Sequence record: PZ445527.1
Length of the DNA: 64,000 bases
Direction: 5' to 3' (one strand)
Origin: a phage
The notes beneath the pieces are model-generated. The model had not been told where the DNA came from. It did not search any database and was given only the letters and a program-made list of their open reading frames with translations. Numbering within the stretch: position 1 is the first letter of the stretch; each line of letters opens with the position of its first letter. The translations under genes and the position numbers were made by a program. This document shows, in pieces, positions 13,932 through 37,002 of this stretch.

Positions 13932-14300
13932 TTACATCGCCTGAGTAAATGTACGACTAATAACGTCGTTCTGCTGTTCACGCGTCAGTGCGTTAAAACG
14001 CACAGCATAACCAGAAACACGAATGGTTAGCTGAGGATATTTTTCAGGATGTTTCTGAGCATCCAAAAGCTGGTCACGACTTAACACATTGACATTTAGG
14101 TGTTGACCCCCTTCAATTTGAGGGGCGACTTCCACCTTGACTTCACGAAAGGATTCGGGGTCAAAGTGAGGTGTGATACCTTCTAGATCCTCAACTAGAA
14201 CTTTTTGTTTAAGTTCACCATCTTTAGAGTATAATTGAATAATCTGATTATTATGAACAATATTAATTACGCCAGATTTAAGATTTTGATATGCTTTCAT
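13932..14300 (-). CDS. grcA: autonomous glycyl radical cofactor (GrcA/YfiD-like)
   Basis: 122 aa; C-terminus [30 protein letters not shown] carries the glycyl-radical motif RVSGYAV and aligns by eye with E. coli GrcA. Confidence 0.8.
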
Positions 14301-14669
14301 TAGATCTCCCTGATGTTAGAATTTGGCTCAGCTTTTTGTTAACCCAGAAGCAAGATAAAAACTGGAAGGCAGGCTTGCTTTTCTCTTAACCACTAGGCTA
14401 CTTTTGGGTGCTAGCATTCCGGTGAGATTGATGGTCTCGGTTAAGAAGAAAAACACGGGACTTCTGTTTTAACGTCGTGCTCCCGGATTGATGCGACTAC
14501 GTGATTGCTCGCGCTAAGACAATGGCTATCTAAAGTCTTAGCTTCTACATTTATACTCCTGGATAGCATGGAGTTGCAGTCTACTTCCTGCTGTCACGCC
14601 CGGTCATTTATAGAATGTGGACTCTCTTCTCAGCAAGTTCTGGCACTATGGCCTGATCTTCTGTTTGGT

Positions 14670-14745
14670 AGTTAGTAGTGGAATCGAACCAGGTTCCACG
14701 GTTTACAAGACCGTTGCATCGCCAGCAATGCTTTAAGAGCTATCG
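14670..14745 (-). tRNA. tRNA-like element or fragment (anticodon-like loop CTTGTAA, TGT)
   Basis: T-loop GGTTCGATTCC and 3-prime ACCA present with a good anticodon stem-loop, but no pairing 5-prime acceptor strand found; abuts the 3-prime end of the HNH ORF. Confidence 0.3.
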
Positions 14746-15132
14746 TTGTCTTGTTGAAACTCTATTTCTGGCCCTATGCGTAGAGGTCATAGAGTGGCAG
14801 TTAGGGCAGAGAATCTTTAGATTTTCTGGAGAACAGTTAGTTGCATCTCCATCTATATGATCTACCTCAGTTAAAACTGCTCCGTCAATTGGATGTTTCC
14901 CATCCCAACCACATACTTCACAAGCAGTACCACGAGTATCCCACAGCCACTTCCTAACAAAAGGTTTTAATTGTGCAGCTTTACCAGTATAACCAGGTTC
15001 TTCACCTGCCAGCCACTTTAATACTTTTTGCTTTGTCTGGTACTCCTGCTGACAAGCAGGACCACAATACTTACCTGCGGAACCTCTACTTTTAGGTTTT
15101 GTGATTCCGCAATTTAAACAAGTAAACTCCAT
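14740..15132 (-). CDS. HNH endonuclease
   Basis: 130 aa; EVDHIDGDATNCSPENLKILCPNCH HNH motif plus N-terminal Cys pairs. Confidence 0.75.
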   Translation of the reverse strand: MEFTCLNCGITKPKSRGSAGKYCGPACQQEYQTKQKVLKWLAGEEPGYTGKAAQLKPFVRKWLWDTRGTACEVCGWDGKHPIDGAVLTEVDHIDGDATNCSPENLKILCPNCHSMTSTHRARNRVSTRQR

Positions 15133-15296
15133 GTTGCTTCCTATTTCAACGGGATTTCTTTTTCAATAACAAGGGCTTATCAGTCATAACTGTCATTGCC
15201 ATTTGTTGTAGAAATTCAAAGGTGAAGGCTACACGTTCTTCACCAATCTCTACTTCTACACGTTTCTTTTGTTTGTCAACCTTTAATTTTAGGCTA

Positions 15297-15518
15297 TCAG
15301 CCATCTTCGGATTCTCGTTGCTCGGCTACTGCTAGCCAGTCTGGTAAAAGAAACTTAGTACGAAACTCTTCATACGTTTCTTCTGGATAAAAGCTAAAAC
15401 CCCCTTTCTCATCATTCAAGATAACAGAGCCGTCAGTTTGTTCATATGCTCGATATGTTTCTCCAATAATGATAACTCGCTTATCAGTACTTTTATTACG
15501 AAACTCAAAAACGTGCAT
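15297..15518 (-). CDS. hypothetical protein
   Basis: 73 aa ORF within the tRNA region. Confidence 0.45.
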   Translation of the reverse strand: MHVFEFRNKSTDKRVIIIGETYRAYEQTDGSVILNDEKGGFSFYPEETYEEFRTKFLLPDWLAVAEQRESEDG

Positions 15519-15534
15519 AACGTTTCCTTAAAGT

Positions 15535-15610
15535 TGGAGCGGCTAGAGGGAATCGAACCCTACTCAGCGAGGCTTGGAAGGCCTGCGACACAACCCGTGT
15601 GCTTAACCGC
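15535..15610 (-). tRNA. tRNA-Gly (anticodon TCC)
   Basis: Manual fold: acceptor GCGGTTA/TAGCCGC, anticodon loop CTTCCAA, T-loop TTCGATT, encoded CCA. Confidence 0.7.
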
Positions 15611-15618
15611 TTATTGTT

Positions 15619-15692
15619 TGGCAGGGGATATTGGATTTGAACCAATGATCTCGACTTCAAAGGCCGTTGTGCTAACCGTTACACTACTCTCC
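15619..15692 (-). tRNA. tRNA, possibly Gln (anticodon TTG)
   Basis: T-arm ATTGG-TTCAAAT-CCAAT, anticodon loop CTTTGAA, encoded CCA; acceptor stem pairs imperfectly so boundaries and isotype are uncertain. Confidence 0.45.
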
Positions 15693-15784
15693 AATTGTTT
15701 GGCTGGAGTGCCTGATTCAATCCCAGGCACCTTCGGAGTCAGAGGCCGACGACTTGACAATTGATCTACACCTCAAGAATACTA

Positions 15785-16021
15785 TTAACTAGATGCTGGT
15801 TCTGCTGGCTGAGATACAGCAGGCTGTTCTAATGTATCTGGTGCTGATACAGAGAAAAGAGCTTGTAATGCTGCAATATCACGCTCGTAAGTTTCAATAC
15901 GAGTAGTAAGAGTATCTACCATCTGTTTATGATAGGCTAAGTTATTCTGAGATTCATCTCGAAGGGTTTGCAGTTCTGCAAGACGTGTTAACATAATTTC
16001 ACTAATTAAAGCATTACTCAT
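15785..16021 (-). CDS. hypothetical protein
   Basis: 78 aa ORF, helical heptad-like character. Confidence 0.45.
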   Translation of the reverse strand: MSNALISEIMLTRLAELQTLRDESQNNLAYHKQMVDTLTTRIETYERDIAALQALFSVSAPDTLEQPAVSQPAEPASS

Positions 16022-16211
16022 TTGTTTCTCCTAAATTTTCCGGTTCTTCTAAACGTTTGCCTTCATGATCTACTCGAATAACTCCGCATCCTTCGCAAAT
16101 CACAACTGCACCATAACCTTCTTTGACTTCAGCTTCTGTAATCAAACCAGAAAGATCACCAGTATCTCTGCCCCACATATCAATGGAGCATTGTTTGCAG
16201 AAATCAGCCAT
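16014..16211 (-). CDS. small zinc-ribbon-like protein
   Basis: 65 aa with CKQC and CEGC pairs. Confidence 0.45.
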   Translation of the reverse strand: MADFCKQCSIDMWGRDTGDLSGLITEAEVKEGYGAVVICEGCGVIRVDHEGKRLEEPENLGETNE

Positions 16212-16236
16212 ATTTTATTTCCTATTTAAGTTAATT

Positions 16237-16313
16237 TGGGGTGGCTAGTGGAACTCGAATCCACATAGGCCTGATTCACAATCAGGATCATTAACCAATT
16301 ATGATATAGCCAC
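16237..16313 (-). tRNA. tRNA-His (anticodon GTG)
   Basis: Manual fold: acceptor GTGGCTA/TAGCCAC, D-stem TCAT/ATGA, anticodon stem CCTGA/TCAGG with loop TTGTGAA, T-arm GTGGA-TTCGAGT-TCCAC, CCA encoded. Confidence 0.8.
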
Positions 16314-16534
16314 AATTGAAAACTCGCAGGGTTAGCGAAACCATCCTCAATTAGCATGTTCTAGAATACTAATCAAGTTATCTCCTATTGCACGCAGCTC
16401 AAGACGAGTACGAATTTTCAATTGTGGCGGCTCTCAGAAACTCTTCTATTCTAGCCTCAGAAGCTTACCCCCGAACGCATGTCGGGAAAGTCTTTCCAAG
16501 CGCATCAAATAGCACCGTTACACTTTGAGCCATT

Positions 16535-16610
16535 GATGTATCAAGGAATAGAAGGACTTGAACCTTCATGAGTTAGACCATTTAACTCAACCGCTTTTTA
16601 GGGTATATTT
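16535..16610 (-). tRNA. tRNA-like element (unresolved)
   Basis: Perfect T-arm GAAGG-TTCAAGT-CCTTC on minus strand but acceptor and anticodon arms could not be paired by eye. Confidence 0.25.
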
Positions 16611-16679
16611 CTAGGAGTGGATGTTCCTAGTAAACCTATTCGGCAGTCCCGTCTACCAATTCCGGCATATTCCAAGATT

Positions 16680-16774
16680 TGGAGGTAGGTAAGGGGATCG
16701 AACCATTACACCGTATCACTACGGTCAACCGATTTCAAGTCGGAGTCCATCGCCAGCCGTTGGATTGACCTACC
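16680..16774 (-). tRNA. tRNA-Ser (anticodon TGA), class II
   Basis: Acceptor GGTAGGT/ACCTACC perfect, anticodon loop CTTGAAA, long variable arm, CCA encoded. Confidence 0.75.
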
Positions 16775-16786
16775 TTATAAATTGTT

Positions 16787-16871
16787 TGGTGGGTTAGGAG
16801 AGACTCGAACTCTCACGCACTTAAGCAAGGGCTTCTAAGACCCTCGTGGCTACCAATTACACCACTAACCC
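16787..16871 (-). tRNA. tRNA-Leu (anticodon TAG), class II
   Basis: Acceptor GGGTTAG/CTAACCC, anticodon stem AGGGT/GCCCT with loop CTTAGAA, long variable arm, T-arm GAGAG-TTCGAGT-CTCTC, CCA. Confidence 0.75.
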
Positions 16872-16877
16872 CTAATT

Positions 16878-16952
16878 TGGTGGACAGTAGGAGAGTCGAA
16901 CTCCTCACTCCTGAGTGCAAGTCAGGTATTTTCCCAGATAAACTAACCGCCC
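16878..16952 (-). tRNA. tRNA-Ala (anticodon TGC)
   Basis: Acceptor GGGCGGT with G3-U70 wobble, anticodon stem CCTGA/TCAGG with loop CTTGCAC, T-arm AGGAG-TTCGACT-CTCCT, CCA. Confidence 0.75.
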
Positions 16953-17191
16953 AAATTCTTTAATTTACTAAGGCTATTAGCTCGGCGTAACTACAGCACC
17001 TTCGCTTCAAGCGGAAGGAACCGCGTCATCTCGCAAACCCAATACACTATTCAGTTGCCGCTGAATCTAGTGGACTAATCTAGAACTTCTCCCGAGTCGT
17101 AGGGATCGTGCTTTTTGGCAGCCAGTCCTAGGTCGAGCTAATACCTTAGTGAATTATGATGAGGATTTCTCCCATATCAATTTATATAAAT

Positions 17192-17220
17192 ATTATAACA
17201 AGAAATTAATCATCAAGCAA
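17192..17220 (-). promoter_or_regulatory. sigma70-type promoter upstream of non-coding leader and tRNA-Ala/Leu/Ser
   Basis: TTGCTT, 17 nt spacer, TATAAT, then conserved leader ATATTTATATAAATTGA. Confidence 0.65.
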
Positions 17221-17321
17221 TTGAGTTTTTCTTGAAATTGGTAGCGGGTTCCAGTACTGCCCTGGACTTACTTAGCTTATGAGACTAAGAAGAACTCTAT
17301 GCCTTCCACCCGCAATTGTTT

Positions 17322-17400
17322 GGTTATTCTAGACAGGATTCGAACCTGTTATCACTTGTGCGGACTTACGAGAACCATTCTTTCACTCGAATCGAACGAG
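17322..17400 (-). tRNA. tRNA-like element (unresolved)
   Basis: Perfect T-arm ACAGG-TTCGAAT-CCTGT followed by ACCA; remaining arms not confidently paired. Confidence 0.3.
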
Positions 17401-17567
17401 CTTCTGCCCTAGCCAAGCTGGTTTCCCCATCAACCACGCTAGAATGTTTGATTGTTTTCAGTGCAAGAGTCCGAGTCTTGGACACGACCGTTTCGCAAGT
17501 ACATAGGCAGCTTATCATGAGTCAGCACTTCCGAATTGCTAGCCCCGTGTTCTGCACTGAAATTTTA

Positions 17568-17915
17568 TTAGTTTAACCGTAAAGTATTATCTAATTCACC
17601 ATTAATTGTTCGGCATTCCTCTGGAATTGCTGGTGTGGCCTTGTATTCCCACCACTCAGCACCATCATATTCCCCACGTTCTAGCCAAGTTCCGTCGGCA
17701 AACCATACATTACCATAAAGTAATTGTCCACCGTATCCAGAATCATACTCAAAGTCTAGGTTATCAAGAAAATCCTCAATATCTTCTTCTGTATAGCCTA
17801 AAGGTAATACCCAAACTTTTTTATCCCCATAATACCCGAATTCTATTTTAATACACTTAATTTTAGAATTGGTATTTTTTAAGGCAAGTAACAACTCTTC
17901 TTTAGCATTACGCAT
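17568..17915 (-). CDS. hypothetical protein
   Basis: 115 aa ORF between tRNA groups. Confidence 0.5.
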   Translation of the reverse strand: MRNAKEELLLALKNTNSKIKCIKIEFGYYGDKKVWVLPLGYTEEDIEDFLDNLDFEYDSGYGGQLLYGNVWFADGTWLERGEYDGAEWWEYKATPAIPEECRTINGELDNTLRLN

Positions 17916-17940
17916 AGTATATTCTCATACTGAATTAATT

Positions 17941-18017
17941 TGGCGCGACTGATGGGATTTGAACCCACATTCCCTCCCGTGATAGGGGAGTACCATTACC
18001 AAGCCAGCCACGGTCGC
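17941..18017 (-). tRNA. tRNA with unusual anticodon loop CTATCAC (anticodon ATC, isotype uncertain)
   Basis: Acceptor GCGACCG/CAGTCGC, anticodon stem CTCCC/GGGAG, T-arm GTGGG-TTCAAAT-CCCAT, CCA encoded. Confidence 0.6.
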
Positions 18018-18026
18018 ATAATTTAT

Positions 18027-18212
18027 TTACTCAGCTTTGAGTTTTTCAATAGCTGCATTAAGTTCTTTAAGAAACTCTTTTCGTACATTAAGACGATTGA
18101 GACTTACTAGTATATCATGTTTAAGTTCTTCGATGTATTTCTTCTCAACTTCAATATTGTTGATAGTGCTATCACGATGAACTTCTAGCTGCGCAATCAC
18201 ATTCTTGGACAT
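18027..18212 (-). CDS. hypothetical protein
   Basis: 61 aa ORF, charged helical. Confidence 0.4.
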   Translation of the reverse strand: MSKNVIAQLEVHRDSTINNIEVEKKYIEELKHDILVSLNRLNVRKEFLKELNAAIEKLKAE

Positions 18213-18314
18213 GCTTGTTTCCTCAGTTATTAATGAAAATGGTATCTGTGGCTGAATTAGATGTCAGCAATGATAGCTGGTTGGCTACCGGTTTACTTAA
18301 CTCTACACAGAATT

Positions 18315-18397
18315 TGGCGGGCCGTGTAGGATTCGAACCTACGTTGTCTTTCGACACGGATTAACAATCCGCCGCCAAACCGCTTGGCTAACGACCC
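18315..18397 (-). tRNA. tRNA-Asn-like (anticodon GTT) with extended variable arm
   Basis: Acceptor GGGTCGT/ACGGCCC, D-stem GCCA/TGGC, anticodon stem GCGGA/TCCGT loop TTGTTAA, 13-nt variable hairpin, T-arm GTAGG-TTCGAAT-CCTAC, CCA. Confidence 0.6.
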
Positions 18398-18552
18398 TAA
18401 AAAATTTATATTGCTGACTAGGGTTTTCACCTAGACGGAGTTAGCACCGTAGCGTGTAGCGGCATACCTCTCCAAACCGTGCCTCATCTTTCAATTACGG
18501 AGACAGTGTTCCTACGCGTGCCTGAATTGATTTAACAATTCTTTCAGCAAAT

Positions 18553-18628
18553 TGGACGACCGCATGAGGATTGAACTCACATAAAAAGGATTTGCAATCC
18601 TTCGCCTAAGCCATTCAGCCAACGGTCG
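18553..18628 (-). tRNA. tRNA-Cys (anticodon GCA)
   Basis: Acceptor CGACCGT/GCGGTCG, anticodon stem AAGGA/TCCTT loop TTGCAAA, T-arm GTGAG-TTCAATC-CTCAT, CCA. Confidence 0.75.
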
Positions 18629-18806
18629 ATTTATCTTGTTTTTCGAGATCTTCAAACTCTAAATCATTGAAGTTCCCTAGAGTACGGGTATAGAACCCAT
18701 CCCCTGCGTCATAGCCTGATTTACCACAATCACACATTTTAAATTCGCGCAGGTGTGTGAAAACATGTTCAGAACCACAACACTTAAATCTAACTAATCG
18801 TTTCAT
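18615..18806 (-). CDS. small Cys-containing protein
   Basis: 63 aa; CCGSEH and CDCG motifs; 3-prime end overlaps tRNA-Cys by about 14 nt; promoter at 18835..18863. Confidence 0.4.
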   Translation of the reverse strand: MKRLVRFKCCGSEHVFTHLREFKMCDCGKSGYDAGDGFYTRTLGNFNDLEFEDLEKQDKSTVG

Positions 18807-18834
18807 TAGCTTCTCCAGTTCAATTTATGTAATT

Positions 18835-18863
18835 ATTATATAGAACTTTTGGGAACTAAGCAA
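18835..18863 (-). promoter_or_regulatory. sigma70-type promoter
   Basis: TTGCTT, 17 nt spacer, TATAAT. Confidence 0.6.
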
Positions 18864-19145
18864 CTACATTTTTTAAGAATTTGATGCCTTTCTTTTTCTT
18901 CTTATATTTCCACGTTAATGGATTCTGTCGATTATGAACGCTTGAGATCTTTGTCTCGTCAAAGTTCTTCAATATCATGTAATCACAAGATAATTGTTCT
19001 AGTGGAATGTGATCACCGTCAAAAGCGTATACATAAGGCTGTTGACTAGCACGATAATGATAGACTTTGTTAATTCTACGTTTCAGCGACTTATCCGCGC
19101 AGTAAATAAAGAAGTTTTAAGGGTGCATCAGCATCTCCTTCAATT

Positions 19146-19229
19146 TGGTGCATCGTGCTGGATTTGAACCACCAACCCCGAAGGGCACGGATTTACAGAC
19201 CGCTGCAATAGCCATTCTGCCAACGATGC
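19146..19229 (-). tRNA. tRNA-Tyr (anticodon GTA), class II
   Basis: Acceptor GCATCGT/ACGATGC, D-stem GCAG/TTGC, anticodon stem GCGGT/TCCGT loop CTGTAAA, long variable arm, CCA. Confidence 0.8.
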
Positions 19230-19357
19230 ACATTTAAAAGTATTCAAATACTAGTTTAAACACTTTTAAATATGTTTCCAAATTAGATAACTATTATACC
19301 AAGTTTTAAGGCACTGAGCAAGTCAGATTTTGAAGAACTTGCTCAGTGCTGTATTAG

Positions 19358-19642
19358 TTAGTCGAACTTAGGAGTGACAGATAAGGAGAACGGAAGTTCA
19401 AAAACTTCTTCACCCTCATTACTAACGGTAACTACACGACCTTTAAGTTCAGACATTAAAATATCAATATCAGCTTTTGCATCTGGAGCCATGCCAGCTT
19501 CAATACATTTAGCTTTAACTTCCGGTAAAAGCTCTACGTTATAGAGATAGAGCCACTCAATCTCACCTTCCCAGTCTTCCCAGTCTTCCCAGGATTTGCA
19601 GATTGCACTTTCAATACCAGTTGCTACAACACGATTTTGCAT
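19358..19642 (-). CDS. hypothetical acidic protein
   Basis: 94 aa with WEDWEDWEGEIEW repeat; promoter 19673..19702 upstream. Confidence 0.5.
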   Translation of the reverse strand: MQNRVVATGIESAICKSWEDWEDWEGEIEWLYLYNVELLPEVKAKCIEAGMAPDAKADIDILMSELKGRVVTVSNEGEEVFELPFSLSVTPKFD

Positions 19643-19672
19643 TCGTTAACTCCTTCATCAATTTATATAACT

Positions 19673-19702
19673 ATTATACCAGAAATTTAAAGCAAAAGGC
19701 AA
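19673..19702 (-). promoter_or_regulatory. sigma70-type promoter
   Basis: TATAAT with TTGCCT 18 nt upstream. Confidence 0.5.
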
Positions 19703-19732
19703 GTACATTTTTAAAAATTCTGTTTGGAGGAG

Positions 19733-19939
19733 CTAAACTCCAGATTCTTCTGCCAAGTCTAGACTAATAAGAGTTATAGCCATAATTGCTGCACCGTGTT
19801 CTTTTTCTCCGGTGTTTTTAGCAGAGTCTATAATATCCTTAATCTGTTCGTAATAACTTTTTACTTCTTGTTCAATGCCTGCCTCGGCTATCATGCCTTT
19901 AGTCATGAGTCGTTGCATGGTAATTTCAGTATTAGCCAT
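19733..19939 (-). CDS. hypothetical protein
   Basis: 68 aa ORF. Confidence 0.45.
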   Translation of the reverse strand: MANTEITMQRLMTKGMIAEAGIEQEVKSYYEQIKDIIDSAKNTGEKEHGAAIMAITLISLDLAEESGV

Positions 19940-20114
19940 GTTGTTTCTCCAGTTTCATTTTTAATAGTTTACAAATGAAATCAACGTCTTCATCCGTGCC
20001 TAGATCTCTATCTTCAAGGGTTGCCTTGAAATTTTTTGTTAGTTCCATAAGAATAACTTCCCTGGAACGACGTGTTGGCGGGGGTGGATGTCTATACATC
20101 TTATTTCCTTAATT

Positions 20115-20189
20115 TGGTGGGTCGGAGGAGAATCTAACTCCTACTCGTTAGCTTATGAGGCCACCGCTTTAACTTTAAGCTACCGACCC
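20115..20189 (-). tRNA. tRNA-Met or Ile2 (anticodon CAT)
   Basis: Acceptor GGGTCGG/CCGACCC perfect, D-stem GCTT/AAGC, anticodon loop CTCATAA, T-arm AGGAG-TTAGATT-CTCCT, CCA. Confidence 0.75.
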
Positions 20190-20195
20190 TATGTT

Positions 20196-20284
20196 TGGCG
20201 GAAGAAGTGGGAATCGAACCCACAAGGCTATATTTCAAACCGACAGATTAGCAATCTGCTGCAATACCGTTATGCTATTCTTCC
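20196..20284 (-). tRNA. tRNA-Ser (anticodon GCT), class II
   Basis: Acceptor GGAAGAA/TTCTTCC, anticodon stem GCAGA/TCTGT loop TTGCTAA, long variable arm, T-arm GTGGG-TTCGATT-CCCAC, CCA. Confidence 0.8.
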
Positions 20285-20298
20285 GAATTTATAAATAT

Positions 20299-20327
20299 AT
20301 TATATTAGAAATTTAGCTTCATAGCAA
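20299..20327 (-). promoter_or_regulatory. sigma70-type promoter directly upstream of tRNA-Ser(GCT)/tRNA-Met
   Basis: TTGCTA, 17 nt spacer, TATAAT, with the tRNA 5-prime end about 15 nt downstream. Confidence 0.65.
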
Positions 20328-20823
20328 GAAAATTTTTCAAGTTTTCGGTAGACATCTCATCCACATCTACAGGAGAAACAAATCCATTTAATTGTCTAGC
20401 AAATTTTTTACCAGCAGGATCATTATCCCCAACAGCTACCAATTTAAAAGGTAGTAATTTCAATTGCTTTAATAGCGCTTTTCCTGGAGAAGAACCCAAC
20501 ATTGCCAAGGCTGGATAACCAGCGTTATGTAACGCAACTGCCTTAAATACAGATTCAGCAATCAATACCACTTTTTCATCTCCATTGAGAGTTTCTAGTC
20601 CCCATACACACTGTGTAGTAGAATAAGTAAAATATCTAGCTTCAAAGGGGCACTTACCATGACCTTTTGGAGCAGAAGGATTATAAGTCTGATAGCCTCT
20701 CAACATCCCAGAGAAGTCATACAATGGGACTGTTAGCCATCCTTCCGGGCTTAACCAGCAATGATATTTATCTGTATCAAACCCTCTAGATAAGAGATGT
20801 TCTGTTAGTTCATCAACAGTCAT
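20305..20823 (-). CDS. hypothetical protein (possible Toprim-like fold)
   Basis: 172 aa; VAVGDNDPAGKKF resembles a DxD Toprim motif, assignment tentative. Confidence 0.5.
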   Translation of the reverse strand: MTVDELTEHLLSRGFDTDKYHCWLSPEGWLTVPLYDFSGMLRGYQTYNPSAPKGHGKCPFEARYFTYSTTQCVWGLETLNGDEKVVLIAESVFKAVALHNAGYPALAMLGSSPGKALLKQLKLLPFKLVAVGDNDPAGKKFARQLNGFVSPVDVDEMSTENLKNFLAMKLNF

Positions 20824-20860
20824 ATTTGATCCCCTAGTTAGTTGTATAAATACATTATAC

Positions 20861-20894
20861 AGAAAAGCCCTGCGCTCTCCAGTGAACGCAGGGC
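20861..20894 (-). terminator. rho-independent terminator
   Basis: Stem GCCCTGCG...CGCAGGGC followed by T-run on minus strand, after SPFH gene stop. Confidence 0.55.
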
Positions 20895-20919
20895 TTACTT
20901 CGAATATTACGTGTGGGTA

Positions 20920-21867
20920 TTACTTGTTACGCATATCCATAATCATTTGGCCATCGTAACCAGTGCCAACCACAGTCTGCGGTACACCACCTTGATACTT
21001 CTGAGCACGAATCATTTCAACTTCTAGTTGCTTCCAGCGAATCATCTCAGGAGTAATGGTACGTTGCAGAGCGGCGTTAGCTTCAGCTTCTTTCTTAGCT
21101 GCGTACAGTTTAGCATCTGCATCACGTTCGTTTGCAATAGCTTGGTTGTTACGAGCTTCACGATCTGCTTCTGCTTGTTTAACCTTCTGCTGTGCTTCTT
21201 GTTCAACACGAGCCAACTCAGCTTTCGCAGCATTAACTTGTTCTTCACGAACTTTGGTATTCTGTACCTGTTCCATGATTACAGGCGGCAAAGTAATATC
21301 CTGAAGGAACACTTGCTTAACTGTGTAACCATAAGGGCGTGCATACTCTTCAACTTCCTGTTGAATTGCAGTTTGCAATTGAGCCTGAATTTTAGCATCA
21401 AACAAATCTTGTGCTTTAGGTACAGACTTACCAAACTCACGAATAGTAGACAGTAATTTTTCAGTTACATACTTGTCTAGTGCCTGATCCTGAGTACCTG
21501 CATTAATACGGTTAATCGGTGCCTTAGAACCATCAAACTGCAACATAACAGTCAGGTCAACAGTGGATTTAAACTTATCCTGACTAGGAACCTGAAGTTT
21601 ATCTAATTTTACAGCAATATCTTTTGTACTGAAAGTATCGAAAGATGCAAACGGGTTTACAATATGGAAACCAGGTAATACTGGATTAGGGTCTACTTTA
21701 CCAAGAAATGTTTGGGTTTTAACCGTACCATCAGAAACAATAGTATATGAATTAAAAGCTAGGATTAAACCTGCTAAACCAACTACAGCACCAATACCCC
21801 AACGTTTAATAGTACGGATTACTTTCTGCTCAGAAGTCAGTTCTTTCATATTTTTAGTAGCAAACAT
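20920..21867 (-). CDS. SPFH/band-7 (HflK/C, stomatin-like) domain protein
   Basis: 315 aa; N-terminal TM helix, SPFH-like core, long Ala/Gln/Glu-rich coiled-coil C-terminus. Confidence 0.65.
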   Translation of the reverse strand: MFATKNMKELTSEQKVIRTIKRWGIGAVVGLAGLILAFNSYTIVSDGTVKTQTFLGKVDPNPVLPGFHIVNPFASFDTFSTKDIAVKLDKLQVPSQDKFKSTVDLTVMLQFDGSKAPINRINAGTQDQALDKYVTEKLLSTIREFGKSVPKAQDLFDAKIQAQLQTAIQQEVEEYARPYGYTVKQVFLQDITLPPVIMEQVQNTKVREEQVNAAKAELARVEQEAQQKVKQAEADREARNNQAIANERDADAKLYAAKKEAEANAALQRTITPEMIRWKQLEVEMIRAQKYQGGVPQTVVGTGYDGQMIMDMRNK

Positions 21868-21901
21868 ATATTTCCTTTGTTTTAGTTACAGTTAATAAAA
21901 T

Positions 21902-21976
21902 TGGCCGAGGTGACAGGATTCGAACCTGCATAAAGGAATTTAGAAGACTCCTGCCTCTCCCTTAGACTACACCCCG
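21902..21976 (-). tRNA. tRNA-Arg (anticodon TCT)
   Basis: Acceptor CGGGGTG/CACCTCG, D-stem GTCT/AGGC, anticodon stem GGAGT/ATTCC loop CTTCTAA, T-arm GCAGG-TTCGAAT-CCTGT, CCA. Confidence 0.8.
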
Positions 21977-22479
21977 TTTAAGTATTTTTAAGAACTCTCG
22001 TAAAAACTCTTAAAAATACAGACGATACCGGGAGAGTCATAAGTCTCACTCATTAAGTATTTCAAGACAAAATACAGTAACGTCTATTATTTTCCAGTTT
22101 AAGTCAGGGTGACTTAGTGGTTATGTCCTGCGGTATATTGAGGACTCGGTTAGGCTTGGGGTCATGACTTCCCGCCTTTTGCTGCTACTCAACAGGAGTT
22201 ATCGCGAATTACCTGTGCTATTGTGCACCATTAGTGACATCTCTCATGCCAGCATTTCCCACTTTGTGGATAGCTTGAAAAACTACTCCGATACGGAGAA
22301 AGAACTTCACTATCCTAGAATACCTTCTAAAGTTCTTCTTTAGCCTGGACATAGTTAAATCGTAATAAAACTATTCAGCAGACCGGTTGGTTAGTCTGGA
22401 ACCAACTACCGCGTGGTTTAGGCAGTGCGCAACTAACCTCGGAAGCTTTTACGTTAAAAGCACCAGTTATCCAGTTCTT

Positions 22480-22552
22480 ACCGACCGTAGGATTCGAACC
22501 TACATCTTCCACCAGTTACGGCTTGATAATACCAATTATACTAGGACGGCAG
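22480..22552 (-). tRNA. tRNA-like element, possibly degenerate
   Basis: Canonical T-arm GTAGG-TTCGAAT-CCTAC and D-loop AATTGGTA, but no convincing anticodon stem and no encoded CCA. Confidence 0.3.
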
Positions 22553-22626
22553 TGTTACTACATAAGTGATTTCCACACCCCACTATTTATAAATTAGAAA
22601 AGAATTACTCTCTAATTTATGAATAT

Positions 22627-22655
22627 ATTATACAGAATTTATAAGCATTTAGCAA
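22627..22655 (-). promoter_or_regulatory. sigma70-type promoter reading into the tRNA-like element and non-coding region
   Basis: TTGCTA, 17 nt spacer, TATAAT. Confidence 0.6.
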
Positions 22656-22663
22656 ATGAATTT

Positions 22664-23098
22664 TTAGAAAAACTCGCTAGCAATCAAGGCGGCTGTTTTA
22701 CCATCATAACGCCCTGTAAACTCTGCCTTAATAGTTTTCATTAAGAGAGCTTTGGTAATACCTGGGTTTAGCTTAACCAATTCTGCAAAGTATTTACGAA
22801 TTTCAGTTTCAGTTAACTGTTGCAGTGCATAATCATGCTCTAAACGCGCTAAAAGATCTAAGTATTCAGCATCAGGGGTATAGTCAACATTCGATTTTTC
22901 AGCAGCAATCCGTGTATTCTCAATTGCTTTGAATTGTGATTTCAACCAGTTAGTAAACTCCAGCTCAGTTACGCAATCTTTATCAATACGTTGCAGGTCT
23001 CCTAGAACCGTACTTAGATGCTTAACTGATACAGCGTCACCACTTTTGCGAGCAGCTTCAATCAACTCTCGCAGTACATAAAGCATATTCATGCCCAT
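22664..23098 (-). CDS. hypothetical protein
   Basis: 144 aa ORF. Confidence 0.55.
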   Translation of the reverse strand: MGMNMLYVLRELIEAARKSGDAVSVKHLSTVLGDLQRIDKDCVTELEFTNWLKSQFKAIENTRIAAEKSNVDYTPDAEYLDLLARLEHDYALQQLTETEIRKYFAELVKLNPGITKALLMKTIKAEFTGRYDGKTAALIASEFF

Positions 23099-23099
23099 T

Positions 23100-23270
23100 A
23101 TTTCATCCCCAATGCTTGGTTGAAAGATTGTTCCGTCATAACTGCTGAGACTTTGGCGAAATCAAACTTTTTAGGGTTAGTAGTGATCTCAGCAACGTTG
23201 GAAGTTTTAACAGTTTTCGTAGTACGAATACCGCGAGTGTTAACACCAATGACGATCAAGTTTTTCATAT
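23100..23270 (-). CDS. small hypothetical protein (below 60 aa track cutoff)
   Basis: ATG at 23270 preceded by GAGAGGAAG RBS and promoter 23300..23328; about 56 aa ending just before the next gene start. Confidence 0.4.
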
Positions 23271-23299
23271 TTCGCTTCCTCTCATTAATTTATGAAAGT

Positions 23300-23328
23300 A
23301 TTATACAGAAGTTTAAGTATTTAAGCAA
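23300..23328 (-). promoter_or_regulatory. sigma70-type promoter
   Basis: TTGCTT, 17 nt spacer, TATAAT. Confidence 0.6.
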
Positions 23329-23336
23329 ATAAATTT

Positions 23337-23786
23337 TTAAGTTTTAGTGACAACAGGCTTATAAAATGTATGTCCCTTAATCTTAGTTGTTTTCTTAAAC
23401 TTCTTTGTCCAGTACGGTTTATCTTTACCACTATGGAAGTATAAAGCTCCATGTGTAGGATCTTGTGGTAAATCAACGTAGTATATCACTCTAGCTAAAT
23501 TCTTGGCGGTTTTCCAAGCCTCATCGGTTTTATCAACTTTTGGTCTCTTAGATACCCAAGAGAACTGGTTAGACTGATATACTACTTTACAGTAGGAATC
23601 TGGGAATTTACCGGAGTTTACACGGTTTTTAGTAACATGTGCAATCGCCGTCATTCCCTTTATGCCCTCACCACGACTTTCGAAATAGATATTTTTAGCA
23701 ATGCAATCTATTTCTTTTGCATCGTGCGATGCCTGACTACTAAAGCTGAAGGTAAGGGCAGCTACTAAAAGCAAAGCTGCCTTCAT
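23337..23786 (-). CDS. secreted cell-wall hydrolase (SleB/CwlJ-like)
   Basis: 149 aa; signal peptide then NIYFESRGE...TAIAHVTKNR...YQSNQFSW resembling the SleB/CwlJ hydrolase domain. Confidence 0.6.
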   Translation of the reverse strand: MKAALLLVAALTFSFSSQASHDAKEIDCIAKNIYFESRGEGIKGMTAIAHVTKNRVNSGKFPDSYCKVVYQSNQFSWVSKRPKVDKTDEAWKTAKNLARVIYYVDLPQDPTHGALYFHSGKDKPYWTKKFKKTTKIKGHTFYKPVVTKT

Positions 23787-23798
23787 TCTTTTTACTCC

Positions 23799-24620
23799 TT
23801 AAAATAGATCATATTCTAATCTATTGGGATTTTCTCGGTATCCATAAGACGTAAGAGTACCCCTCATATACTCTGCGTCAACAGGATTAGATGTTACTAG
23901 AACCACTTTTAGTGGTCTTTGACCTAAAAATAGTATATGATCTAATAAGTCTTTTCCTTGTACCTCTGGATCTCCTAAATCTGAGTCCATAAATAAATAG
24001 GATCCTGTGAAACTAAATATATCTGATAGTTCCAGCGCACCTATAACTGTACGACAAATAATGGACATTTCAGGTAGATCTCTAACATCGTCTATTAGAA
24101 TATTGGTCTGCTTCCCAATTTCTGCATTACATAAACCATTTACTAGTTTTTCTCTTTCCCCTTTAGCTTGTTCGAAAGTGGTGAAGCCAGGAGATACGAA
24201 AAACTTTCCACCTAATGTAATGCTATACACAAAACCCTCTGGGAGTAGTTCTACACCTACGGTTTTATTAGTATTAATCCTATTTAACTTAAAATTTGTC
24301 TCTCTTAGATTAATAATTCTGTTATCCCACGGTATAGTATTTATATGGTCGATCATATAAGGCGGCTCTTCACCATAATGGAGCAACCACGCTATTCGGT
24401 GTCCATAAATAATTGTGGGTTTATTATCTAAGAGCAAACTAACTCTGATGTACCCATCAGAGTTCTTACTACATATTTCTCTCCCAGCATATAGGGTGTG
24501 CCAAGTTTTATTCTTGTATTTATTAGGCTTATAAAATAATTTACCGGTATAAGGATTATACTCTATAATTTCTCGAATATAATCTATATATGGTAGTATT
24601 TGTTTTTGTAATTTACCCAT
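23799..24620 (-). CDS. HNH homing endonuclease (HNH_3-like)
   Basis: 273 aa; GHRIAWLLHYGEEPPYMIDHINTIPWDNRIINLR; own promoter at 24651..24679. Confidence 0.7.
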   Translation of the reverse strand: MGKLQKQILPYIDYIREIIEYNPYTGKLFYKPNKYKNKTWHTLYAGREICSKNSDGYIRVSLLLDNKPTIIYGHRIAWLLHYGEEPPYMIDHINTIPWDNRIINLRETNFKLNRINTNKTVGVELLPEGFVYSITLGGKFFVSPGFTTFEQAKGEREKLVNGLCNAEIGKQTNILIDDVRDLPEMSIICRTVIGALELSDIFSFTGSYLFMDSDLGDPEVQGKDLLDHILFLGQRPLKVVLVTSNPVDAEYMRGTLTSYGYRENPNRLEYDLF

Positions 24621-30174: not shown

Positions 30175-31014
30175 TTAAGAAGACATCTTAGCTTTAAGAG
30201 CTGGGTGAGGATCATACCCCTCCAAATGGAATGACCAAGCTGCCGTATTATTTTCTAGTAAGTCGTAAAGATCTACAAATTCTGGCATTACTAGAGTCGG
30301 TAAAGGACGAGGTTTACGTTTTACCTGTTCTTCTACCTGTTCCATGTGGTCATTATAGATATGAGTATCGCCGCCACTAAAGATAAGGTAGCGAGGTTTT
30401 AATCCTGTCAGTTTTGCTAATATATGCGTTAATAAAGCATAACTAGCAATGTTGAAAGGTAAACCGAGGAAACAATCCACAGAACGTTGTGTCCATTTAA
30501 GATCTAGGTATCCATCGTTACTTACATAGCACTGGAAGCCGTAGTGACAGGGTGGTAATGCCATTTTATCAAGTTCAGCTACGTTCCATGCAGATACTAG
30601 GTGTCTGCGACCATGTGGGTTATTTTTGAGTCCCTCAATAAGTTCTATAATCTGATCTCGTCCACCAAAGTTGCGCCATTGTTTACCATATACTGGCCCT
30701 AGATTACCTTTGTCATAACCCATACTTATGGCTTGGTCTTCGTAGTTTGGAGTCCATATAGTCCATTGCCCCTCATCACACCCAAAAGTGAATACACGTA
30801 GATCATGAAGATTTGTGGAACCAGACAAGAACCATAAAAGTTCTCCTACTACTGATTTCCAGGCCAGGCGTTTAGTAGTTACAGCCGGGAACCCTTCACG
30901 TAGATCGAACTTAGCATAGGAATCAAAAATTGAAACTGTGCCTGTTCCTGTACGGTCATTACGGGGTTCACCTAGTAAAATTACATCTGTCAAAATTTTT
31001 AAGTATTGTTGCAT
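30175..31014 (-). CDS. thyA: thymidylate synthase
   Basis: 279 aa; conserved ThyA active-site region PPCHYGFQCYV. Confidence 0.9.
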   Translation of the reverse strand: MQQYLKILTDVILLGEPRNDRTGTGTVSIFDSYAKFDLREGFPAVTTKRLAWKSVVGELLWFLSGSTNLHDLRVFTFGCDEGQWTIWTPNYEDQAISMGYDKGNLGPVYGKQWRNFGGRDQIIELIEGLKNNPHGRRHLVSAWNVAELDKMALPPCHYGFQCYVSNDGYLDLKWTQRSVDCFLGLPFNIASYALLTHILAKLTGLKPRYLIFSGGDTHIYNDHMEQVEEQVKRKPRPLPTLVMPEFVDLYDLLENNTAAWSFHLEGYDPHPALKAKMSS

Positions 31015-31547
31015 TAATAAGTAACCAATTCCTGTACAAATCGCAGGCTGTTATCACTGTTTGCGCCAACTGCATAGACTAATCGAGTGGATTCATAGTT
31101 ATAATCCAGTATCATACTATCTAGGTGTGTATCTGCCTCTAGCTTCTGTTCGCTAAAGATTGTAGATACAAAAGCACTTTCAATATGCCCATGTTGGTAC
31201 ATTTCTAGAAGAAGACTAGCTCCACCTAGAACTACTGTTTGCTGATCTTTTAGAAAGGTAGGTAATGTATCACCTATCATTGATATGGGAGTGTAAATAT
31301 CGTGTGTAATATCGTCTGGCAGTGGACGATCAGCACGAATAAATAGGTCAGAAGCTCCAATCATACGTTCCCTAACGGTATATGGAAGAGCTAAATAAGT
31401 ACCCGCACCAATGATGATATTATCGGGATTCAACACGTCCAGTTGGGAATAGAAAGCATTCAGCTCTTCCTTGAAGGAGCCCCAAGGAAGCTTACCCCGG
31501 AGGCCGAACTCCCCATTCGGCCCAACTGCATACATTGCTGTAATCAT
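31014..31547 (-). CDS. dihydrofolate reductase
   Basis: 177 aa; N-terminal MITAMYAVGPNGEFG and position between thyA and nrdB. Confidence 0.8.
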   Translation of the reverse strand: MITAMYAVGPNGEFGLRGKLPWGSFKEELNAFYSQLDVLNPDNIIIGAGTYLALPYTVRERMIGASDLFIRADRPLPDDITHDIYTPISMIGDTLPTFLKDQQTVVLGGASLLLEMYQHGHIESAFVSTIFSEQKLEADTHLDSMILDYNYESTRLVYAVGANSDNSLRFVQELVTY

Positions 31548-32689
31548 AGGAAATCTCCAAATTCATTACCCAAATCTTTCAGGGTATCCATAGACGTTTC
31601 TGTGACTTGACCTACACGGTAGGCTGCACCAATCTGGATTTCTTGTGGAGCAGGCTGTAGAGAGGTAGTATCCAACCAGTTCATGATCCACGGAATAGGG
31701 TTTTTGGTGATTACTGGTAAGTGACTAGGCCATTCTACACCAATGTGCATAAATGCATTACGCCCCACAAAGTACAGATATTCTTCTAGAAGTTCTGCAT
31801 TCAAACCAATCAGACTACGACCTTTGAAGATGAAATGACCCCATTCAATTTCAGTTTTCAGAGTTTTCAGGAGCTGTGCTGGTGCTTTAGCCACTGCTTC
31901 ATCTACCAGATCTTTGTCAAACTGCTGGAACATAATCTGGATGATTGTTTTAGACATCTGCGTGTGAAGGGCCTCATCCTTAGCAATCAACTGCAGATTT
32001 TTAGCAATACCTTGCAGAATATCGTTCTCTGCTAACGCAAAGGTACATGCAAAGGATGCGTAGAACTGCATTGCTTCCAGACCGTAGATTGCAAAATAAG
32101 CATCTAACAGTTTAGCCTGAGTTTCACGCTTAACTTCAGGGAACTCAGTTTCTGGGTATGTATTGTCACCACGATGATCACGTACTGCGATGAAATACTG
32201 ACCTAACTGGTACAGTTCATCAAATAGTTCAACAGAATCTGCGATACGTGCAAATGCTTCTTGGTTTTTAGTTACAGAATCAATAAATTCTGCCGGATCA
32301 GTCAACACATTACGAATAATATTGCTATAGGCACGACTATGCAGGTCTTCAAAGTAGCTCCACTGTTTTAGCATTCCTTCCAGTTCAGGGCGGCTTACAA
32401 GCGGCATAATAGCTGCTTCAGGTGCGCGACTAATGAAAGAATCTGTTTGGGTCTGCCATGCTAAGTTCAGGAGTGTAATTTCCTGAATTTCACGAGGGAG
32501 GTTAGGCCATTGTTTCTTATCAGCCTCTAAACTGATTTCTGTCTCAGTCCAAAATTGAGAGCGTTGCAGAAGTGCCAGACGCTCTAATTCTGGATGTGCT
32601 ACGCGTACATAATCTGCGATACCTAGAGAATCGCCCAGGAAAAGATCAGCGTTAGTATGATCCCAATTCAGGTTTAGTAAAGTAGTCAT
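31544..32689 (-). CDS. nrdB: ribonucleotide reductase small subunit
   Basis: 381 aa; iron-ligand and tyrosyl-radical region typical of class Ia R2. Confidence 0.9.
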   Translation of the reverse strand: MTTLLNLNWDHTNADLFLGDSLGIADYVRVAHPELERLALLQRSQFWTETEISLEADKKQWPNLPREIQEITLLNLAWQTQTDSFISRAPEAAIMPLVSRPELEGMLKQWSYFEDLHSRAYSNIIRNVLTDPAEFIDSVTKNQEAFARIADSVELFDELYQLGQYFIAVRDHRGDNTYPETEFPEVKRETQAKLLDAYFAIYGLEAMQFYASFACTFALAENDILQGIAKNLQLIAKDEALHTQMSKTIIQIMFQQFDKDLVDEAVAKAPAQLLKTLKTEIEWGHFIFKGRSLIGLNAELLEEYLYFVGRNAFMHIGVEWPSHLPVITKNPIPWIMNWLDTTSLQPAPQEIQIGAAYRVGQVTETSMDTLKDLGNEFGDFL

Positions 32690-32720
32690 TGATTTTCCTC
32701 TTTCTCACTATTTCAGGAAT

Positions 32721-32749
32721 ATTATAGCAAATCAGATAGCGATTAGCAA
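32721..32749 (-). promoter_or_regulatory. sigma70-type promoter upstream of nrdB
   Basis: TTGCTA, 17 nt spacer, TATAAT. Confidence 0.6.
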
Positions 32750-32755
32750 GTAAAA

Positions 32756-33262
32756 TTATAAACTATCAAGCTCCAATAGTTTAGCATCACGCCATTCTAT
32801 AGCATCCTCTAATTCTTTAAATGTTTTTGTATATTTTACGCCTTTACGAGCTATCTGGACTTGATATGATCCACTAGCTTTTTGATGAATATTTTTAATA
32901 CCTAGCTTATTGTCTTTATGCGCCCCGACATTCTTTCCGTTACTGAATCTATCAGAAGCTACTAGGTTAATAGCTCTATTATCATGTCGTATTCTATTAT
33001 CGTGGTCTACTTCAGGTGGCAGATACCCATGAATTTTAGCAAAGATTACCCTATGGGCTAAGTAGGGGTATCCTTTAATATTTAATACTATATATCCTGT
33101 AGATTTATCTAAGGAGCCTGCTGGTTTTCCGGCATATTTGGTATTAAATGTTTTATTATCTCTAGGTCTATGAGTCAATATTCCAGTATATGGATCATAA
33201 TCAAATAATTTAGCTACCTCTAGATGATCTTCTAATGTTTTTGACATAATTATAATTTCCAA
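32756..33262 (-). CDS. HNH homing endonuclease
   Basis: 168 aa; AHRVIFAKIHGYLPPEVDHDNRIRHDNRAINL; sits between nrdA and nrdB. Confidence 0.75.
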   Translation of the reverse strand: MEIIIMSKTLEDHLEVAKLFDYDPYTGILTHRPRDNKTFNTKYAGKPAGSLDKSTGYIVLNIKGYPYLAHRVIFAKIHGYLPPEVDHDNRIRHDNRAINLVASDRFSNGKNVGAHKDNKLGIKNIHQKASGSYQVQIARKGVKYTKTFKELEDAIEWRDAKLLELDSL

Positions 33263-33311
33263 CCAATTAGTATAAAAATAAGAGGGTTATAATTAACCCT
33301 CTTTACTAGTT

Positions 33312-36300: not shown

Positions 36301-36659
36301 GCACTCATGTCTTCCCATGCACCTACGCTAACCATGTGGTCATGGAAGAAGCGCAGAGAAGGTGGTTCGAAGGAATCATAAAGGCGTTTACGCATTTGCG
36401 CAAGACGTAATTCCTTTGCTGGCACATCGTATGCTGGGTTATCTTTGATAAGGCTTTCAGCAGCCTTAATTAATGCGTCCATCAGAGTGTCGGAATCTAC
36501 AACCCCTTTAGGCAGAGTTTTTTGAGCAGCCATAGTAATGGCTGACCAACTTACATCAACTGTTTTGCAACCATACTCTGCCCAACCATTGAGTTTTTCA
36601 GGAGCAAAGTCTTCTACAGTACCGTCACGTTTAATTACTTTTTCAATGCGATGGCTCAT
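33312..36659 (-). CDS. nrdA: ribonucleotide reductase large subunit with in-frame intein
   Basis: ORF 33312..36764; start placed at MSHRIEKVIKRDG Met by comparison with NrdA N-termini; class Ia R1 motifs throughout; about 340 extra residues inserted at the NLC active-site motif. Confidence 0.9.
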   Translation of the reverse strand: MSHRIEKVIKRDGTVEDFAPEKLNGWAEYGCKTVDVSWSAITMAAQKTLPKGVVDSDTLMDALIKAAESLIKDNPAYDVPAKELRLAQMRKRLYDSFEPPSLRFFHDHMVSVGAWEDMSAWITDEQFEALNQVIDHDRDRLFTSGGLKQFFDKYSRRNIATGEIYETPQFAYMGMAMAMLSQPNWTILDAIDLYNAMSLHKINVPTPPLVGLRSSDRGFASCCLVDSTDTLDSIDTAEHIVFKMVAARAGIGYHLESRSIADPVRNGAFPHSGKLPYYRHIDRSVKANTQQTRGGSATVSYPYFDPEIIQLMQVKQQRATDENKIDKMDYSLSFNNLLLKRYLKNEDITLMSYFYAPEVHEAFYSDDEAKFEEIYVAAEKRVASLTKIDHEGKTVPAAPKVSAKEILDTWLRIRMETGRMYAHHIGESNRHGNFLDPIRMTNLCVAPETKILTKNGNIEIIDLVGKEVEIWNGQEWSTVIPTKTGEAQELIKITFSDGSTIESTLYHKFYHQPKYVREDRRTSFKQGLEEVRAVDLQVGMKMPKFSNPIVDHGNMVLKSPYTNGFFTGDGTYGRHGEPKLYFYEKGGKLPLVDKIDAEIQGSGLLDSTGRLSYIVKSDLMPKYFVPGPEYTIDSRIKWLEGYLDADGCIQKNGTTPSIVVASAEPDFLSKVKDLLLELGVTSKIILGRKEGDHELPDGTGTSKLYHCKETSRLIVGSSGFWKLKDLGLSLDKEKLLNLTRPNRDATRFVTVTNVEFTGRISDTYCFTEPKLNLGVFNGILAGNCVEITQPTRPFHHITELYKTKEQLDQMKPEDIGEVSLCNLGGVVLGRMESLAEWEKTCYILLKFVDTIIEIQDYPFPTMEYTAKKRRNVGIGLMNAAGAMAAEGLAYEGVEARNWIHREAEKLSYFLHKASVRLAKEQGACEWFNRTKPSKGILVIDTYKKTVDELVSVGLEMDWESLRADILKYGMRNSVLTAQMPGESSSVLLGVTNSIEPPRKIVSIKGSAVNKVIAIAPGATDWDTLMSYKLAYDVDRIEWIKWNAVYQKFLSQSSSFQMYYDYSKFENEIIPGPVVVRDFMTAVKYGIKTWYYANFNTANGGGAGETTGCSSGGCTL
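34311..35330 (-). mobile_element. intein with LAGLIDADG homing endonuclease inside nrdA
   Basis: Insert begins with Cys (CVAPET), ends GILAGN followed by +1 Cys of extein NL-CVEITQP; contains GFFTGDGTYG and LEGYLDADGC motifs. Confidence 0.8.
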
Positions 36660-37001: not shown

Positions 37002-37002
37002 A

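Follow-up and report, generated by a model that had tools for sequence, protein, structure and literature searches.

A tRNA-Asp gene with an encoded AUC anticodon in a T5-like phage, an allele of the conserved GUC gene of the family

A natural tRNA-Asp-AUC has been described in Streptomyces, where position 34 was 97% A and GAU was decoded efficiently (PMC9262613). This tRNA is rare, being found in accessory DNA in 32 of 4649 streptomycete genomes, and no homologues of the gene of Streptomyces violaceusniger SPC6 were reported outside streptomycetes (PMC9262613). The TadA of E. coli shows high specificity for the anticodon loop with ACG; no inosine was found in orthogonal tRNAs with anticodons unlike ACG at both positions 35 and 36, and a change at position 32, 37 or 38 blocked the editing (PMC11066159). 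An orthogonal tRNA with an AUC anticodon reassigned GAU in E. coli to 3.5%, while GAC, GAA and GAG were below detection (PMC11066159). As for charging, G34 is one of the five strong determinants of bacterial Asp identity, the anticodon determinants being the strongest in bacteria, and G2-C71 is a minor determinant that is conserved in bacterial tRNA-Asp (PMC9976931).

The anticodon loop is also the target of tRNases. Colicin E5 cuts tRNA-Tyr, -Asp, -His and -Asn, with an absolute requirement for YGU and with tRNA-Asp as the second-best substrate (PMC1635277). Anticodon-loop changes in phage tRNAs that evade host tRNases have been put forward as a general hypothesis (PMC10264068), and T5 tRNA-Lys against PARIS is a proven case of such evasion (PMC11464382). 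The T5 variant T5Mos, which lacks 16 of the 23 tRNA genes owing to a deletion of 30661-38625, is viable (PMC11464382). This deletion spans the annotated position of the tRNA-Asp gene of T5.

The DNA analyzed in this study, referred to as the window, is the whole 64,000-nucleotide stretch of phage sequence record PZ445527.1. By similarity, the window comes from a T5-like phage (Tequintavirus, Demerecviridae). A query of 801 nt around the gene of interest matched 394 phage records with a best identity of 97.9%, and nearly all of the matched records came from T5-like phages of Salmonella, Escherichia and Shigella. With a 24-kb query, the identity was 92-95% at 85-87% coverage (HildyBeyeler, HASG4 and others), the best being about 94%, and thus no record in the searched phage collection appeared equal to the window phage. 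The gene lies downstream of tRNA-Asn on the same strand, between two small ORFs, as in the relatives, whose annotations identified both ORFs:

18027..18212, minus strand: intact 61-aa ORF upstream of the tRNA-Asp gene, homologue of T5.068 / ORF trn 2.9
17568..17915, minus strand: intact 115-aa ORF downstream of the tRNA-Asp gene, homologue of ORF trn 2.10

The stop codon of the 61-aa ORF is 9 nt before the tRNA-Asp gene and the start of the 115-aa ORF is 25 nt past it. T5-like phages match this region at 94-98% identity, and the order ORF-tRNA-ORF-tRNA-Asn is preserved. The gene itself is identical at 74 of 77 positions (96.1%) to the commonest T5-family tRNA-Asp(GUC) allele, and 356 phage records covered at least 80% of it at 90-96% identity. 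By its place and identity, it is the syntenic orthologue of the tRNA-Asp gene that is conserved in the T5 family. The 383 nt upstream (18018-18400) matched Shivani, SHSML-45 and LmqsSP1 at 99.7% identity; for the 381 nt downstream (17560-17940), the best relatives were the GEC_vB_N series and LVR16A at 96.8-97.1%, and no record exceeded 97.1%. With different best matches on the two sides, the gene sits at a mosaic boundary.

The preliminary description had placed a tRNA with an ATC anticodon, and thus A at the wobble position, at 17941-18017. Both statements were borne out: ARAGORN called a tRNA-Asp (atc) of 77 nt at exactly these coordinates on the minus strand, as one of 12 tRNA genes in the window, all on the minus strand, and Rfam RF00005 matched at full length (model 1-71) at 17944-18017 on the same strand with 44.5 bits (gathering score 29; E=4.9e-7 in a 10-kb search) and aligned the same anticodon. 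The parts of the gene are as follows.

17941..18017, minus strand: tRNA-Asp gene, anticodon AUC, with encoded CCA (17941-17943); from ARAGORN, Rfam and homology
17974..17990, minus strand: anticodon stem-loop CUCCC-CUAUCAC-GGGAG; from the Rfam alignment, with the same hairpin in the MFE fold
17981..17983, minus strand: anticodon A34-U35-C36; from the sequence, the alignment with phage 5 and Shivani, and the population probes

Positions 17981-17983 read GAT on the plus strand and hence ATC on the minus strand, with A34 opposite the T at 17983, where the relatives have C (G34). In the Rfam alignment, the anticodon loop is C32-U33-A34-U35-C36-A37-C38 and the acceptor stem is GCGACCG/CAGUCGC, followed by U8. 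The D arm is GCUG-GCUUGGUAA-UGGU and the T arm is GUGGG-UUCAAAU-CCCAU. G18G19 are present, and the discriminator G73 is directly 5' of the encoded CCA. The cloverleaf had first been described as good; a C6·A67 mismatch in the acceptor stem, the sole non-canonical pair flagged in the Rfam alignment, and a weak D stem with three G·U pairs had been overlooked. The Rfam score of 44.5 bits compares with 46.7 bits for the GUC gene of HdH2 and 46.6 bits for phage 5, a drop of only 2.2 bits.

An alternative fold giving a standard anticodon, which would have spoken against the ATC reading, was also examined. The unconstrained MFE fold retained identical anticodon and T hairpins and offered no standard anticodon, and another fold or register with a standard anticodon was ruled out, since AUC falls at positions 34-36 in the ARAGORN call, in the Rfam alignment and in the MFE fold. 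Since the folding energy was not better than that of shuffled sequences (z=0.17, which is uninformative on structure), the evidence for a real tRNA comes from the covariance model and the hundreds of syntenic orthologues. A second tRNA-Asp(GUC) gene was not found in the window, either among the 12 ARAGORN calls or among additional Rfam matches.

To place the gene within its family, 40 T5-type tRNA-Asp genes were sampled, and nine alleles were found among them. The commonest allele (15 of 40) is that of HildyBeyeler, HASG4, SHSML-45 and GEC_vB_N3, and the window allele is this allele with three substitutions: G8U, G34A and G67A. Besides G34A in the anticodon, these are:

18010, minus strand: private substitution G8 to U; plus strand A, with C in 42 of 42 aligned relatives
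17950, minus strand: private substitution G67 to A, turning C6-G67 into a C·A mismatch; plus strand T, with C in 38 of 38 relatives

Positions 8 and 67 were G in all the other tRNA-Asp sequences sampled. G8 belongs to the unusual core of the T5-family tRNA-Asp, together with G14 and the G·U-rich D stem. U8 is the universal tRNA base, and G8U brings position 8 of the window tRNA towards it. The comparison with T5 that had been suggested in the preliminary description was the right test; overlooked there was that the window gene is a point-mutated allele of a tRNA that is normally GUC, with two further private substitutions.

The frequency of the AUC anticodon was assessed with 41-nt probes centred on position 34, and since megablast required an exact word of 28 nt, every word spanned the wobble base. 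The expected rarity of ATC was upheld. The GTC probe matched 339 records of T5-like phages, whereas the ATC probe matched one record among 50,697, namely AJ604531 of Salmonella phage 5; of the 369 records that matched the tRNA, about 30 were left unclassified by the probes, and A34 alleles on divergent backbones could escape. AJ604531 is a 13.7-kb "Bacteriophage 5 tRNA gene region", in which the authors annotated the gene as "codon recognized: GAU". A pattern with N at position 34 gave G in 24 of 24 IMG/VR contigs and in 12 of 12 metagenome contigs, with the 20 nt around position 34 fixed and the variation inside that stretch censored. The exact window pattern with A34 was absent from IMG/VR, the metagenome contigs and the GTDB genomes, and the ATC pattern had no match in the 185,579 bacterial and archaeal species genomes of the latter (one per species). 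A34 probes for the tRNA-Asn and tRNA-His of the family gave no match, these genes being presumably present in many records. In tRNA-Asp, A34 was thus seen in only 2 of about 340 sampled genomes, and no clade carries it.

In phage 5, G34A is the sole change and sits on the allele of T5 itself (A45, G8, G67), the second commonest in the sample. The window G34A is on a G45 allele, so the two backgrounds differ in position 45 of the variable loop, and the window flanks have an identity of 97.9% to G34 phages and of only 95.6% to phage 5. Because of these two differences, two independent G to A transitions would be the simplest history for the window and phage 5. Alternatively, a gene-conversion tract ending within 10 nt may have been involved.

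The three changes were then set against the rate of change of the locus. Among the relatives, the ratio of tRNA to flank divergence was 0.09, i.e., the tRNA changed about 11-fold more slowly than the 350-nt flanks, whereas the ratio between the window and the others was 0.40. Compared with the closest relative, SHSML-45, the flanks differ at 15 of 700 sites and the tRNA at 3 of 77. The probability of at least three changes in the tRNA is 5e-4 under the constraint typical of the family and 0.23 under neutrality. The usual family constraint is lost in the window tRNA-Asp, and its three substitutions are too few to tell relaxed from positive selection. Over positions 14000-24000, the private substitutions of the window amounted to 0.69% (60 of 8715), clustered patches included. 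One such patch, with 7 private substitutions in 18 nt, was observed at 20836-20853 within the homologue of a 519-nt "DNA primase-related" ORF, and it resembles a short tract acquired by recombination or gene conversion from a relative that has not been sampled.

Changes were also observed in other tRNA genes of the window. The tRNA region (14600-22600) contains 12 ARAGORN tRNAs, compared with about 25 in HdH2 and 23 in T5, and the genes for Lys, Pro, fMet, Val, Phe, Trp, Glu, Leu(UAA), Ile and Thr are among those missing. The tRNA content is very plastic across Tequintavirus, and SHSML-45 likewise has few tRNA genes. At 15700-15775 (minus strand), the T arm of the T5-family tRNA-Gln(CUG) homologue is rewritten (CCTGGTTCGATCCCAGG in the relatives, CCTGGGATTGAATCAGG in the window) and the D arm is changed too; 7 private substitutions and one indel fall within about 60 nt. 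This tRNA was called by neither ARAGORN nor Rfam, and the locus is probably a decayed tRNA-Gln(CUG) gene. The tRNA-Ser(UGA) gene (16680-16774, minus strand; position 16705) has three private substitutions. By manual reading, G to U at raw position 70 converts a T-stem G-C into U·C, and the change at raw position 51 converts a U·G of the variable arm into C-G. The T5 record marks its own Ser(UCA) and Ser(UCC) genes as pseudo. In the tRNA-His and tRNA-Cys of the window, the private changes are at the variable T-loop positions 59 and 60.

Two further loci of the window are tRNA-like. The one at 22479-22550 (minus strand) scored 35.5 bits with the Rfam tRNA model and has good acceptor, D and T arms, with the anticodon arm skipped by the model; it received no ARAGORN call, and its near-identical orthologue in HASG4 is annotated as "tRNA-Ser(act)". 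This orthologue was considered as a sign of a family habit of A34 tRNAs and was rejected, since the anticodon arm falls outside the tRNA model; the annotation was probably given in error to a conserved tRNA-like RNA. The other, at 15538-15611 (minus strand), has a CTTCCAA loop (possible UCC/Gly anticodon) and lies where the relatives have tRNA-Gly(tcc), with only scattered identity of its body to the tRNA-Gly of HdH2 and HildyBeyeler. Its best model was tRNA-Sec (30.9 bits), it was missed by ARAGORN, and it is identical in several other T5-like loci.

The tRNA-Asp(GUC) gene itself is unannotated in many GenBank records, SHSML-45 and GEC_vB_N3 among them, although it is present and intact. The atypical core (G8, G14 and three G·U pairs in the D stem) likely lowers the scores of tRNA finders and leads to such annotation gaps. 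A second tRNA-Asp(GUC) lineage was seen in four metagenome contigs (L031, L032, L038 and L039); its D and anticodon arms, including G8, are identical, while its acceptor stem (AGTCGCG...) and T arm differ entirely. The D and anticodon half may thus be conserved as a module in related phages.

Of the Asp identity elements, the window tRNA keeps G73, U35, C36, C38 and G10, and because these are kept, AspRS would be the only plausible synthetase. The element G34 is replaced by A34. C2-G71 is found instead of G2-C71, as in every T5-family allele, and is thus a family trait. Charging by AspRS would be weaker, because the tRNA lacks G34 and has a mismatched pair in the acceptor stem. Tgt requires U33-G34-U35; with no G34, no queuosine is therefore expected on this tRNA. 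The loop CUAUCAC differs from the TadA loop (C32 U33 A34 C35 G36 A37 A38) at positions 35, 36 and 38. Inosine at position 34 is not expected with such a loop and would do harm, since I34 could pair with the Glu codon GAA as well. The initial supposition that A34 would need modification to decode sensibly is not supported, as an unmodified AUC anticodon reads GAU (PMC11066159, PMC9262613). In 62 long ORFs of the window, GAU makes up 689 of the 912 Asp codons (76%), and Asp has the strongest U-bias among the NAY boxes. With U33-A34-U35 in place of the YGU motif needed by colicin E5, the UAU loop should resist cleavage by this nuclease. G34 is present in the remaining E5 targets of the window (Asn gtt, His gtg, Tyr gta), and no defence nuclease specific for tRNA-Asp beyond colicin E5 was found in the Schlafen and AriB papers.

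We therefore consider, with moderate confidence, that G34A, G8U and G67A make up a tolerated, probably hypomorphic tRNA-Asp allele under relaxed constraint. The RNA would still be transcribed together with the small ORFs on either side and mature into a cloverleaf tRNA. With G34 absent, the host Tgt would be unable to add queuosine, and the host TadA would leave A34 undeaminated, the loop being UAUCAC and not UACGAA. A34 would thus stay unmodified, and the tRNA would read GAU alone by Watson-Crick pairing. The host AspRS would charge it with Asp only, less efficiently than with G34. Such an allele may be near-neutral to mildly defective and simply be tolerated, because host tRNA-Asp reads both GAU and GAC and the T5 tRNA genes are dispensable. 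We favor this hypomorph because of its extreme rarity without a clade, the neutral-like rate, the destabilizing change in the acceptor stem, the erosion of neighboring tRNAs, the loss of an identity element and the dispensability of the T5 tRNA region.

Some observations run counter to this view. The tRNA-Asp gene has stayed in place between intact flanks, while half of the tRNA set of this phage is lost; G8U brings position 8 closer to the universal U8, and the Rfam score falls by only 2.2 bits. The occurrence of G34A on two backgrounds, by apparently independent events, and its absence from the tRNA-Asn and tRNA-His of the family hint that A34 is tolerated or favored specifically in tRNA-Asp. 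The change may instead have been adaptive, with A34 selected as a queuosine-independent Watson-Crick decoder of GAU, the dominant Asp codon of this AT-rich phage, and/or for the loss of YGU against nucleases of the colicin E5 type, in which case the phage tRNA-Asp would survive the cleavage of host tRNA-Asp; we regard this as possible but unlikely. A GAU-specific decoder would fit a phage in which GAU accounts for 76% of the Asp codons, AUC reads GAU specifically in E. coli, and the functional Streptomyces tRNA-Asp-AUC boosts the decoding of GAU, which shows A34 to be tolerated by the AspRS of at least one bacterium. The strict need of colicin E5 for YGU and the rank of tRNA-Asp as its second-best substrate (PMC1635277), the nuclease-evasion hypothesis (PMC10264068) and the proven escape of T5 tRNA-Lys from PARIS are consistent with the second advantage, and faster change at three invariant sites is also expected from positive selection. 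However, only 2 of about 340 sampled genomes and no clade carry the change, the Asn, His and Tyr tRNAs of the same phage retain G34, a strong AspRS determinant is lost and G67A weakens the acceptor stem. The Streptomyces rationale applies weakly, since E. coli and Salmonella have queuosine, and the Schlafen and AriB papers name no phage-defence nuclease specific for tRNA-Asp. The full form of this idea, in which G34A is a recurrently selected switch to a queuosine-independent, GAU-specialized tRNA-Asp that is also immune to YGU-dependent nucleases, seems to us improbable; if true, this would be the first case of a phage evading a tRNase through a change of its wobble base, and a functional split-box A34 tRNA would for the first time be known from an enterobacterial system.

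The neutral-like substitution rate, the clearly decayed tRNA-Gln(CUG) homologue nearby, the large tRNA losses in the lineage and the dispensability of the region would also fit a dead gene, i.e., a pseudogene awaiting deletion in which the three substitutions together, among them that at position 8 of the tertiary core, stop processing, folding or charging. We find this rather improbable, as the cloverleaf scores 44.5 bits against 46.7 for an intact orthologue, all the helices are intact but for one pair, and the T-loop, G18G19, G73 and CCA are kept; moreover, single acceptor mismatches also occur in conserved T5 tRNAs such as tRNA-Gln, and phage 5 has A34 without the other damage. All three changes are private and single-base, and no identical allele was present in any searched collection, as would be seen if the real phage had GUC and the changes came from sequencing or assembly errors or from laboratory mutation. 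This is very unlikely, since private substitutions are found all over the region (60 of 8715) in clusters typical of recombination, the flanking ORFs are intact, and the independent Sanger-era record of phage 5 has the same A34 and is annotated as reading GAU. Least credible of all is that the host TadA makes I34, giving a tRNA that reads GAU, GAC and, erroneously, GAA. The A34 of tRNA-Arg(ACG), the canonical bacterial A34 tRNA, is indeed quantitatively converted to inosine; however, TadA is specific for the ACG loop and leaves AUC-type anticodons unedited (PMC11066159), the window loop departs from that substrate at three positions (35, 36 and 38), and the Streptomyces tRNA-Asp-AUC is 97% A (PMC9262613).

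The allele offers a natural test case for the tolerance of enterobacterial AspRS to the loss of G34, for the behavior of an unmodified A34 in a two-codon box in vivo, and for the escape of a phage tRNA from YGU-dependent anticodon nucleases through a wobble-base change. Knowing that it is a point-mutated GUC allele guards against over-reading it as an exotic decoding system. It also illustrates that tools disagree on such tRNAs, as ARAGORN calls the window gene and several GenBank records omit even the GUC orthologue.

Compared with the known A34 tRNAs, the window tRNA shares A34, C32, U33 and A37 with E. coli tRNA-Arg2 (ACG to ICG). It differs from tRNA-Arg2 at positions 35, 36 and 38 and serves a split two-codon box in which inosine would mean Asp/Glu misreading; on the evidence of its loop, it would not be a TadA-type A34 tRNA. 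The tRNA-Asp-AUC of S. violaceusniger SPC6 (PMC9262613) likewise has an encoded A34, which is unmodified there and reads GAU. The anticodon loop of the SPC6 tRNA, however, is odd (purine 32, C33), and this tRNA works in a queuosine-free, GC-rich host in which GAU is rare, whereas the host of the window phage has queuosine and GAU is the common codon; the likeness would be functional only, between unrelated tRNAs. In nuclease-resistant phage tRNAs, such as T5 tRNA-Lys against the AriB of PARIS, the anticodon loop differs from that of the host at a site that the tRNase needs, as it does in the window. Those tRNAs are fixed across a phage family and keep their anticodon, whereas in the window tRNA-Asp the anticodon itself is changed and nearly unique, and the resistance is putative.

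The closest relatives are the T5 tRNA-Asp(GUC) gene and its Tequintavirus orthologues (AY587007 33431-33507, HdH2, Shivani and HildyBeyeler), which have the same locus, the same neighbors and the same 77-nt body. G14, the G·U-rich D stem, G73, C38 and the encoded CCA are common to this group and the window. The window gene lacks the GUC anticodon of the group, having AUC in its place, and has U8 instead of G8 and A67 instead of G67, which gives C6·A67. The tRNAD gene of Salmonella phage 5 (AJ604531), at the same locus, is the only other phage record with AUC in this gene family; G34A stands alone there on an A45/G8/G67 allele, whereas the window has a G45 allele with two extra changes. An AUC variant of the T5-family tRNA-Asp was therefore already in GenBank, and the window gene is a second, apparently independent instance with extra changes.
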